The translations under genes were made by a program, and so were the position numbers. From a virus (Duplodnaviria; Heunggongvirae; Uroviricota; Caudoviricetes), in the IMG/VR virus record IMGVR_UViG_2617270976_000012, positions 1 through 48,151 of that record: a stretch of 48,151 bases of DNA. One strand, written 5' to 3'. Below are positions 3,134-4,748 of the stretch, piece after piece. Every line of letters begins with the position of its first letter. The stretch's first letter is position 1. The notes below the pieces were generated by a model, which saw only the letters and a list, made by a program, of their open reading frames with translations, ran no database searches and was not told the origin of the DNA.

Positions 3134-3322
3134 TTATCCAGCCGGTGTTTCGTTATTCAGGTACAGCGATACTTTTTTTAGCGGGAGGCATTCACCAGAA
3201 ATTTTTTGCTCGTCTCTTGCCTGGAGGCAGGATTCTTTACTTGCATAAATTCCGGTAATCACATTCTGTGATTCACCCGTTATAAGAAAAACCGTCATCA
3301 TCAGTGCAAATGCTGAAGTCAT
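3134..3322 (-). CDS. ydfD: YdfD-like small membrane protein (Qin dicB-operon homolog)
   Basis: 62 aa, N-terminal hydrophobic segment MTSAFALMMTVFLITGE, resembles YdfD as recalled; ATGA start/stop overlap with upstream dicB. Confidence 0.5.
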   Translation of the reverse strand: MTSAFALMMTVFLITGESQNVITGIYASKESCLQARDEQKISGECLPLKKVSLYLNNETPAG

Positions 3323-3507
3323 TGACGTTCTCCGAAAATACCAAGTTCAAGAAGAGCAATTCGGGAAAGTATGGAATTATCATTGAGCAGATAAGGCTCA
3401 TATTTCCTCATATTAATGGCATCTTCAGTAAACTCCCGGTTACTGAGCAGAACACCAATATCAAAACAACCTTCAGACGTATTAACGTTTGGTAATAACG
3501 TTTCCAT
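3319..3507 (-). CDS. dicB: DicB-like cell division inhibitor
   Basis: METLLPNVNTSEGCFDIGV... matches the N-terminus of E. coli DicB as recalled; GAGGA RBS 7 nt upstream. Confidence 0.8.
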   Translation of the reverse strand: METLLPNVNTSEGCFDIGVLLSNREFTEDAINMRKYEPYLLNDNSILSRIALLELGIFGERQ

Positions 3508-3685
3508 TATCGCGTCCTCAACAATGAATTTTGTGATGCAGTGCCTGGTGCCTCCAGGTGACGTTAACCAGTTAACAATTAACGCCGGATTAGTTGATGC
3601 TCGTTACGCCCGTAAAATACCGCCTTACTGCTTTAACTGTTCCGCGTGCGCATAGCCGCATTCACCGCATCACAAAATTCACTTT

Positions 3686-3725
3686 AAAAAGGGCGGATAT
3701 CCGTTTCCGCCGAATCACCAGAAAA
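3686..3725 (-). ncRNA. dicF: Candidate DicF-like small RNA (approximate boundaries)
   Basis: Minus-strand RNA UUUCUGGUGAUUCGGCGGAAACGGAUAUCCGCCCUUUUU: 5' UUUCUGGUGA and terminal GC hairpin plus U-run resemble DicF as recalled; about 180 nt upstream of dicB in a 520-bp stretch with no minus-strand ORF. Confidence 0.4.
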
Positions 3726-4026
3726 GTGATAACAGAGGGCGTTGCAGCGGGGTTGTCACTTAAGCGTATGGTCAACCTGACAACCCGGTGTCCTCAGCGG
3801 GGAAGGAATACCCCCGCCATACTTACCGCCGCGCCATTTCGCGGATTGCCACAACCGGAAGCGCACGGTCGAATTAAATTTAACGACTACCTACAGAGAG
3901 ACGAACTTCGCCGTGCGCTTTCGCGTTATGCCCTGACTTTTCAGGGATATATCCTTTTCAGTAAACTGTCAGTGCCGGATTCTTATCCGTGTCCGGCGCA
4001 CGCACTCTACCTCACCTGTGAATAAA

Positions 4027-4413
4027 TTAATGATTAATTGATATTTTGTTGTTTGATTCAACTTTCCCATCGGATGTGTGATGCTTTAAATCACAGGAAT
4101 TAATACTGCTTGCTGTAAAATGATTTTCAAGGGGAGCTATTCGAATCCCTTTCTTTTTCATTAACAAGCCAAATCCTTTATTAATGATGTCCATTAATTC
4201 CAGGAAGTATTTTTCATGTAAATCCTGGTTATCAGAGAGCTGCTTCTCTTCGCACAGACCGATAAAGGCACGACGCACGTTACCGGATATAGTATCGATG
4301 GTTTCTTTTTCTACAGTACTCAGGTCAAGAGTCGCCAGTTGAGAGCGAACCACATTCGATGCCATTTCCTGGAATGGTACTGGTAAATCTTTAAATTCCA
4401 TCGTCAACCTCAT
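4027..4413 (-). CDS. Hypothetical protein, AT-rich, unknown function
   Basis: 128-aa ORF; TGATG stop/start overlap with the upstream gene suggests translational coupling; no recognisable motif. Confidence 0.5.
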   Translation of the reverse strand: MRLTMEFKDLPVPFQEMASNVVRSQLATLDLSTVEKETIDTISGNVRRAFIGLCEEKQLSDNQDLHEKYFLELMDIINKGFGLLMKKKGIRIAPLENHFTASSINSCDLKHHTSDGKVESNNKISINH

Positions 4414-4565
4414 CAGTCAGTGTTTCTGGTTAACCAGCGACGCTCGCCAGCTTCAGTTTTAAACGTTTTGCTTCTGGTATACGTCATCGCGGTGAACGTA
4501 CCGTCCTGGTTGGGGAACACACCACATACCAGAGATTCGTTGTTGCCAAGATCGATAGTATCCAT
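4413..4565 (-). CDS. ydfA: YdfA-like small protein (first gene of dicB-type operon)
   Basis: 50 aa from MDTIDLGNNESLVCGVFPNQDGTFTAMTYT...; GAGG RBS 6 nt upstream of ATG at 4565; resembles YdfA as recalled. Confidence 0.45.
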   Translation of the reverse strand: MDTIDLGNNESLVCGVFPNQDGTFTAMTYTRSKTFKTEAGERRWLTRNTD

Positions 4566-4748
4566 GCTGACCTCATTTCCCCTTAACGCCGGGGTAGCGG
4601 AACAAAAACCTGCTGCATAGTTAAAGTTGAACCCTGCCGTCATGTTCTTACGCCTCGGGCTGGCTACTTAACCCCTGACCACTGCCGGGTAACTCGAAGT
4701 ATTTCCCTGCGTTCTGTGGGGCGGGGTGGGGTAGTGGAAATAATCTAC

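Follow-up and report, generated by a model that had tools for sequence, protein, structure and literature searches.

An optional 124-codon gene in a dicBF-type early operon of a lambdoid Escherichia coli prophage

The dicBF operon is a model for the effects of cryptic prophages on host division, metabolism, phage resistance and the virulence of enterohaemorrhagic Escherichia coli (EHEC), and its published treatment is of the form ydfABC-dicF-dicB-ydfD. A variant of this operon in the virus record IMGVR_UViG_2617270976_000012 raises the question of what an additional gene does there, and whether that gene takes the place of ydfB and ydfC. The whole stretch analysed here (48,151 nt, positions 1 to 48,151 of the record; hereafter the window) is an E. 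coli prophage of the lambdoid type, with 99.07% identity to strain LZHX12 (NZ_CP155555.1) over bases 523-5892. The gene in question, ORF124, lies on the minus strand (4401-4027) between a ydfA-like gene and the conserved leader of the small RNA (sRNA) gene dicF. We put at roughly 0.5 the probability that it encodes an accessory early protein, made on derepression, which binds another protein and is built from a hairpin scaffold with a variable tail. The locus itself is an ordinary, already catalogued variant of the known prophage dicB operon behind a known type of immunity region, and it does not overturn the current understanding of the operon. Natural operons can add a conserved gene of unknown function (in ~17% of complete E. 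coli genomes), can be without ydfB and ydfC, and can carry a short DicF that is without the ftsZ-pairing segment and is overlooked by standard RNA annotation, which is relevant to counting dicF copies and to reading prophage-derepression phenotypes in non-K-12 strains. As a common accessory gene awaiting characterisation, ORF124 is a tractable "known unknown".

ORF124 as a gene and as an optional cassette

The open reading frame (ORF) extends over 4027-4413 (128 aa), and an earlier note on this DNA, made from its letters and ORFs, had described it as translationally coupled to the ydfA-like gene through TGATG. The overlap is present in the sequence, but initiation there is unlikely. All 215 homologues and the PHROG profile begin with MEFKDLP, which corresponds to the fifth codon (4401), a GAGG is found 6 nt upstream of this codon, and relatives in which ydfC precedes ORF124 have no in-frame ATG further upstream; TGATG is therefore probably not the start. 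The start is most likely 4401 rather than 4413, giving a product of 124 aa that begins 11 nt after the ydfA stop.

Pairwise dN/dS (the ratio of nonsynonymous to synonymous substitution rates) between ORF124 relatives ranges from 0.09 to 0.45. ORF124 DNA is found in 903 of the 5426 complete E. coli genomes, about one in six (688 with at least 80% coverage), a relative is encoded on 453 IMG/VR contigs, and family members are present in deposited phage records, such as phage Evi, PPompW and Stx2a-converting phages. Judged by this selection and distribution, ORF124 is a genuine protein-coding gene. Its annotation in the E. coli genomes is always "hypothetical protein", as it is for all 215 homologues, and a literature search found no paper naming it; the "ydfA" of PMC12111858 was considered and set aside as an unrelated plasmid gene. 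The AT-richness remarked on before was confirmed (GC 37.6%, versus 52.9% for the window), while dicB has the same GC content of 37.6%, so this is no distinction for ORF124 within the module. The selection and distribution also bear on whether ORF124 could be functionless cargo, a decaying or neutral remnant in a defective prophage, which we regard as very improbable. The prophage does look partly defective, with an IS1 end abutting a truncated excisionase-like ORF, and the gene is dispensable in many operon variants; however, dN/dS is well below 1, the frame is intact in hundreds of genomes and in phage-collection records, and the N-terminal motif is kept across distant members.

The segment 3134-4785 (minus strand) is an early-left operon of the "dicBF-type", carried by a lambdoid prophage that belongs to the Qin/Rac/CP-933P class. 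Its anatomy is based on ORFs, domain matches, scans for promoters, operators and terminators, nucleotide alignment with K-12 Qin and an EHEC prophage, and the RefSeq annotation of near-identical loci. The elements follow in the order of a sigma-70-like promoter in a 39-bp palindrome (the presumed operator), the ydfA-like gene, ORF124, a conserved leader of ~300 nt, a short DicF-like RNA with an intrinsic terminator, dicB, a ydfD-like gene and an exonuclease gene of 823 aa; the four ORFs named in the earlier note are all present on the minus strand. The features of the operon and of the adjoining immunity region are as follows.

5855-6127: ydaS-like gene, divergent from the repressor gene (Pfam YdaS_toxin)
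5782-5820, no strand assigned: second copy of the 39-bp palindrome, putative operator (repeat search, 15-nt perfect arms)
5344-5745, minus strand: helix-turn-helix (HTH) repressor gene, PaaR-like (HTH_3, E=1.7e-13)
5125-5316, minus strand: PaaA2-like antitoxin (Pfam PaaA2, E=1.1e-21)
4838-5125, minus strand: ParE2-like toxin (Pfam ParE_toxin, E=6.6e-16)
4802-4821, minus strand: predicted intrinsic terminator, upstream of the leftward promoter (terminator scan)
4742-4785, minus strand: predicted leftward PL or dicBp-like promoter with palindrome (promoter scan, inverted repeat)
4413-4565, minus strand: ydfA-like gene (DUF1391), 50 aa (Pfam, RefSeq 153-nt form, K-12 alignment)
4027-4401, minus strand: ORF124, PHROG 6937 (profile match, 215 homologues, dN/dS)
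3725-4026, minus strand: dicF leader, untranslated and conserved (alignments with the EHEC locus and K-12 Qin)
3686-3724, minus strand: short DicF variant, 39 nt including the U-tract (K-12 dicF alignment, pattern extraction)
3319-3507, minus strand: dicB homologue, 62 aa (Pfam DicB, NCBIfam)
3134-3322, minus strand: ydfD-like gene (DUF1482), 62 aa (Pfam DUF1482)
567-3038, minus strand: exonuclease, 823 aa, with a C-terminal Rv2179c-like 3'-5' exonuclease domain (Pfam PF16473, E=2.1e-66)

ORF124 had been supposed to occupy the position that ydfB and ydfC hold in Qin. Comparison with the Qin dicB operon confirmed that both genes are absent from the window, but relatives carrying ydfA-ydfB-ydfC-ORF124 speak against ORF124 being their stand-in. 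In a three-way nucleotide alignment of K-12 Qin, the EHEC prophage and the window, the dicF leader is preceded by ydfA-ydfB-ydfC in K-12 Qin, by ydfA-ydfB-ydfC-ORF124 in the EHEC prophage and by ydfA-ORF124 in the window, where the 3' end of ydfA is joined 11 nt from ORF124. The difference between K-12 and EHEC is a clean indel exactly bracketing ORF124. In a prophage of EDL933, ydfA is followed directly by the leader, with neither ORF124 nor ydfB/ydfC, which makes four gene-content states of the operon across relatives; other natural operon variants are likewise without ydfB and ydfC. The gene was detected in 91 loci. Of these, the ones with enough downstream sequence are predominantly of the window type, which has a tail ending in KISINH and a 19-nt gap between stop and leader, and which is found with or without ydfC and with a long or a short DicF. 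The same operon module stands behind RacR, DicA-like, LexA-like and other repressors in other genomes. Since gene-content states, DicF forms and repressors are combined so variously, ORF124 is a separate presence/absence cassette, optional in a freely reassorting mosaic.

The order in Qin of K-12 is dicA, ydfA-ydfB-ydfC-dicF-dicB-ydfD-ydfE, and the window is alike in order and in orientation to the repressor; it also has a promoter directly upstream of ydfA, and its dicF leader and dicF-dicB spacer are nearly identical to those of Qin at the nucleotide level. It differs from Qin in being without ydfB and ydfC, in the extra 375 nt of ORF124, in a ParE-type toxin-antitoxin (TA) pair between repressor and promoter, and in an intact exonuclease instead of the ydfE remnant.

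The N-domain family and the predicted structure

The profile of PHROG 6937 aligns with ORF124 over its whole length (E=3e-75, residues 5-128 of the 128-aa ORF against profile positions 1-124), and ORF124 shows no sequence difference from this family, which has no described function, Pfam entry or structure. The first ~55-65 residues also match the N-termini of PHROGs 1363, 2151 and 9419, all four families being classified as "unknown function". A HMMER search of 1.84 billion representatives recovered 58 clusters (50% identity), all within one narrow family, in which members with a named organism come from Escherichia, Salmonella and Enterobacter; the GTDB species representatives gave two loci, both of E. 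albertii. The diverse family alignment (A3) was too variable for seeding a locus search. Members share the first ~55 residues (the N-domain) and have unrelated C-termini beyond them, with total lengths of 101-212 aa. Five residues (L6, P7, Q11, A14 and F46) are invariant among 27 divergent members with differing C-termini. Even where the 3' parts of two genes are unrelated, their first ~160 nt agree at 93-97% identity, suggesting a recombination breakpoint near codon 54.

The AlphaFold2 (AF2) model of ORF124 contains helices at residues 8-23, 32-52 and 59-83 and a tail (91-124) with a predicted local distance difference test (pLDDT) score below 50, modelled as disordered. According to this model, the conserved N-terminal part (residues ~1-55) would form a two-helix hairpin, which is followed by a third helix and then by a disordered tail. 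The product (14 kDa, isoelectric point (pI) 5.93, 18 D+E versus 15 K+R) is soluble and mildly acidic, with no hydrophobic or membrane segment, and the pI of its N-domain is 4.65. The overall pI together with the acidic N-domain argues against both nucleic-acid binding and an Ocr-like DNA mimic; of the features expected for Ocr/ArdA-like mimics, ORF124 has neither the strong acidity nor a structural match.

The previous statement that ORF124 has no recognisable motifs agrees with our scans. Neither ORF124 nor the 27 divergent members had hits beyond chance in Pfam, NCBIfam or PADLOC, and no PADLOC-DB family was matched at E<=0.1 by ORF124, the YdfA-like protein, DicB or the YdfD-like protein. 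The best hit of ORF124 in a profile search of PDB sequences had an E-value of 0.86, and Foldseek comparison of the AF2 model with PDB and BFVD yielded no match below E=0.5.

Possible function and the variable slot

In the favoured picture of an accessory early protein, the operon would be kept off by the neighbouring PaaR-like repressor, whose operator would also lie at the divergent immunity promoter, and ORF124 would be made only after this repressor is lifted, being translated from the promoter-proximal ydfA...dicF transcript. According to a previous study, the ydfABC-dicF part of the transcript in K-12 accumulates in stationary phase, even without reaching dicB (PMC10448788). ORF124 would act stoichiometrically by binding a host or prophage protein, and would be neither an enzyme nor a nucleic-acid binder. 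The conserved hairpin may be a common scaffold or a partner-binding surface, the variable C-terminus may set the specificity, and the C-terminal part of ORF124 would then be one of many alternatives exchanged by recombination near codon 54. Several points weigh against this picture. Binding to another protein is an argument by exclusion, with no informative homologue behind it; expression from the leftward promoter is inferred for this prophage; the choice of 4401 over 4413 as the start comes only from homologues and the Shine-Dalgarno sequence; the AF2 model is weak, one of five models reaching a mean pLDDT of 69 and the others ~52; and the repressor was assigned to its operators from the repeat sequence alone.

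ORF124 would not be needed for the action of DicB, DicF or YdfD, because functional operons, such as that of K-12 Qin, are without it. This bears on the proposal that ORF124 modulates the toxic products of its own operon (DicB, YdfD, Kil) or the read-through or processing at the dicF terminator, to which we give little probability. In Qin/Rac-type contexts a family member always stands upstream of DicB, Kil or KilR; in Stx2a-converting phages, however, the family member follows exo, and the stretch compared has no annotated division inhibitor; K-12 Qin, too, works without ORF124. A gene call that joins the N-domain to a YdfC-like protein could also be taken to favour the proposal, but this "fusion" may be read-through of a separate GTG-started gene. 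The call comes from a distant Logan contig of 1,843 bp (locus L012), in which the YdfC-like and N-domain parts at 1037-1486 were called as one 149-aa product (P0162); its junction, ...TEV-EFKDLP, suggests that the N-domain may be a separate gene with a GTG start that has been read through, and not a true fusion.

Relatives of the locus differ from the window in what follows the N-domain gene. By hand examination, in 8 of 10 related loci a convergent ORF of 69-92 aa abuts the 3' end of the N-domain gene, while none is present in the window. Such ORFs are located at L004 2865-3086, L005 2871-3092, L006 2862-3140, L007 2799-3074, L009 4395-4628, L010 5628-5837 and L014 4271-4507. The convergent ORF of L004 has its own GGAGG ribosome-binding site, and the convergent ORFs belong to several PHROGs, all of unknown function. 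In a bulk survey, two types of N-domain gene were each accompanied by a convergent ORF of their own, the 133-aa type in 55 of 55 loci and the 135-aa type in 44 of 46, the surveyed loci being mostly near-identical and non-independent. Downstream of the 124-aa class, there was no such ORF in ~74 loci (including the window), a 73-aa ORF in four and an unrelated 74-aa ORF in two.

These counts were examined for a cognate pair of N-domain gene and convergent ORF, a candidate that was largely rejected: the 124-aa class occurs without a partner or with two different partners. The three downstream states of this class suggest that the convergent genes are independent hot-spot cargo and not obligate partners. 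It is correspondingly improbable that ORF124 is the orphan of a two-gene cassette (a toxin/immunity or regulator/target pair) whose convergent partner was lost in the window. The abutting ORF in 8/10, 55/55 and 44/46 loci would fit such an origin, but the three downstream states make pairing non-obligate, linkage within one recombination block accounts for the apparent co-variation, and the solo form, which evolves under purifying selection, is more frequent in E. coli than any other.

The slot looks like a hot spot for lysogen-expressed morons. Genes just downstream of the leftward operator had earlier been called a hot spot for exclusion or anti-restriction functions, a remark that is supported for the convergent genes (sieB in Rac), whereas ORF124 itself is co-oriented with the repressed operon. 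The order in Rac of K-12 is racR, ydaG-ydaF-[sieB convergent]-kilS-kilR-...-recE. Both Rac and the window have a DUF1391 gene near the promoter (YdaF is 84% identical to the core of the window's YdfA), followed by a variable slot, an sRNA (kilS in Rac), a small division inhibitor and later a large exonuclease (recE in Rac). They differ in the slot, which holds the convergent superinfection-exclusion gene sieB in Rac and the co-oriented ORF124 in the window, and in the inhibitor, which is KilR in Rac and DicB in the window. No similarity was found between ORF124 and YdaG, SieB, KilR, YdaE or RacC of Rac.

Another possibility, suggested in the earlier note, is a role of ORF124 in superinfection exclusion, anti-restriction or some other form of anti-defence, by which it would protect the lysogen or the induced phage against other phages or host nucleases. 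We consider it unlikely. ORF124 belongs to the promoter-proximal accessory genes of a PL-type operon, a known exclusion gene (sieB) follows the DUF1391 gene in K-12 Rac, and DicB of the same operon was reported to block the phage receptors ManYZ (PMC6832061); a hypervariable family with swapped C-termini and adjoining small variable genes is also typical of conflict loci. On the other hand, ORF124 matches no PADLOC model, and with a pI of 5.9 and no hydrophobic segments it is not a strongly acidic DNA mimic. It also shares the orientation of the repressed leftward promoter, on which it seems to depend, so that its product would be absent from a stable lysogen, whereas sieB of Rac and the variable small genes of the relatives are convergent and have their own ribosome-binding sites. 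Beyond ORF124 itself, the N-domain family (101-212 aa) might constitute an undescribed class of lambdoid early-operon proteins, in which a two-helix adaptor carries interchangeable effector tails, the convergent genes mark a conflict hot spot of Qin/Rac/CP-933P prophages, and ORF124 is one specificity variant; this wider proposal is quite unlikely and is put forward as a speculation.

DicF, the immunity region and neighbouring features

Between dicB and ORF124, 519 nt (3508-4026) are without a credible ORF and had gone unmentioned in the earlier note; they hold the dicF leader and the short DicF. A plus-strand ORF at 3594-4025 (143 aa, TTG start), antisense to the dicF leader, was judged spurious, because it is Arg/Pro-rich, lies in nucleotide-conserved DNA and carries no annotation in K-12 or the near-identical strain. 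The leader sequence hardly differs among the window, the EHEC locus and K-12 Qin (alignments A2 and A4), and in K-12 it is the precursor region processed by RNase E/III (PMC5069750, PMC10448788). The short DicF (3724-3686, minus strand) keeps the 5' TTTCTGGTGA and the terminator hairpin (stem 3711-3692), is without the internal segment that carries ...UUUUACUCCGUGACUGCUCUG... in K-12, and is 19 nt shorter; its predicted fold has an energy of -15.8 kcal/mol (z=-2.97). The Rfam DicF model found nothing in the window even at E<=10, while K-12 DicF scores 76.7 bits. This short form is present and unannotated in 442 of the 5426 complete E. coli genomes, including O157:H7 EDL933 and 86-24, and it was also located at 5402-5440 of L002 and in L011 (EDL933). 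Previous studies showed that the 3' region of K-12 DicF pairs with the ftsZ ribosome-binding site and pykA, and its 5' end with xylR (PMC5069750). Since the region reported to pair with ftsZ and pykA is deleted, while the 5' seed is kept, we infer that ftsZ control by the short DicF is lost or altered.

The dicF-dicB spacer (3475-3693, minus strand) also gave a sub-threshold match to STnc100 (31 bits versus a gathering score of 47), which shares the CACCUGGAGGCACCAGGCAC hairpin. A full STnc100 copy (145.6 bits) is located at 17475-17684 (plus strand) in the late region, just after three tRNA genes.

The DicB-like, YdfD-like and YdfA-like identities proposed earlier hold, with Pfam matches and 63%, 43% and 84% identity to the K-12 proteins, respectively. 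DicB (3507-3319) matches Pfam DicB over its full length (E=6.4e-37) and NCBIfam CellDivInhibDicB with 114.2 bits (cut-off 100); 39 of 62 residues are identical to K-12 DicB, the C-terminal half being divergent. The YdfD-like protein (3322-3134) matches Pfam DUF1482 (E=1.5e-14) and is identical to the K-12 lysis protein YdfD at 27 of 63 positions; its gene overlaps the dicB stop by 4 nt. The YdfA-like protein matches Pfam DUF1391 (E=7.2e-27) over residues 28-74 of the 76-aa ORF given in the earlier note. Its core (4413-4565, 50 aa) is identical to K-12 YdfA at 43 of 51 positions, RefSeq annotates this 153-nt/50-aa form, and the 26-codon N-terminal extension is absent where the promoter is closer (K-12, L004 and L007); the longer version, reaching 4643, is possible but is not conserved. 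The exonuclease, annotated as "exonuclease" in relatives, is the intact counterpart of the position held by the ydfE remnant in K-12.

The repressor is a different one from that of Qin, as had been claimed. Its gene product (5745-5344) is 28% identical to DicA and scores 52.6 bits against NCBIfam DicA, below the cut-off of 101, which makes it a distant relative of the DicA family. A dicB operon behind a non-DicA repressor is not new and is an already published architecture: dicB or kil is located 3' of paaR2 in CP-933P-type regions, where PaaR2, YdaS and YdaT are the functional counterparts of CI, Cro and CII, respectively (PMC8630535). The window matches the CP-933P architecture of an HTH repressor, PaaA2 and ParE2 in one operon with divergent ydaS-ydaT (PMC8630535), including, past the toxin gene, a leftward promoter that has related operators. 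The toxin is similar to ParE2 of E. coli O157:H7 (PDB 5cw7, E=1.2e-37) and the antitoxin to PaaA2 of the same serotype (PDB 3zbe, E=1.5e-22), while YdaS- and YdaT-like genes (Pfam YdaS_toxin and YdaT_toxin) are divergent from the repressor.

The leftward promoter (TTGACA-18 nt-TAGATT, 4771-4742) has 10 of 12 matches in the promoter scan, and the scan of 3000-6000 on the strand of ORF124 gave no other promoter-like site. It is overlapped by a 39-bp palindrome (4747-4785) whose 16-nt arms are 100% complementary. The 39-mer recurs with 82% identity at 5782-5820, in the divergent immunity promoter region between the repressor and the ydaS-like gene, and both copies follow the consensus ACAAT(T/A)AAAAACTGT...ACAGTTTTT(T/A)ATTGT; they are presumed to be operators of the PaaR-like repressor. 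Unlike the window, with one 39-bp palindrome per promoter, CP-933P (Sp12 of O157:H7) has 18-bp palindromes with the half-site GTTTAGTAA. This motif has six one-mismatch matches in the window (5.0 expected), none of them in the promoter regions. The operators thus differ from those of CP-933P, and so, presumably, does the immunity specificity.

The TA pair of PaaA2-ParE2 homologues lies between the repressor gene and the leftward promoter and is co-transcribed with the repressor in the window. At the same position, L010 (3899-4563) carries HigB and an HTH gene in the opposite orientation, suggesting that TA modules recur at this place.

At the left end of the window, an IS1 end occupies 1-323 (InsA ORF at 1-276, terminal repeat ending near 323) and is abutted by a 55-aa excisionase-like ORF (327-494) that appears truncated. 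To the left of 523, the window differs from LZHX12, in which xis and int are present. These features suggest a possible defect in excision. The prophage also carries, in its rightward part, a sok antitoxin RNA of a hok/sok-type locus (112 bits) at 12061-12236 and the three tRNA genes at 16388-16634.

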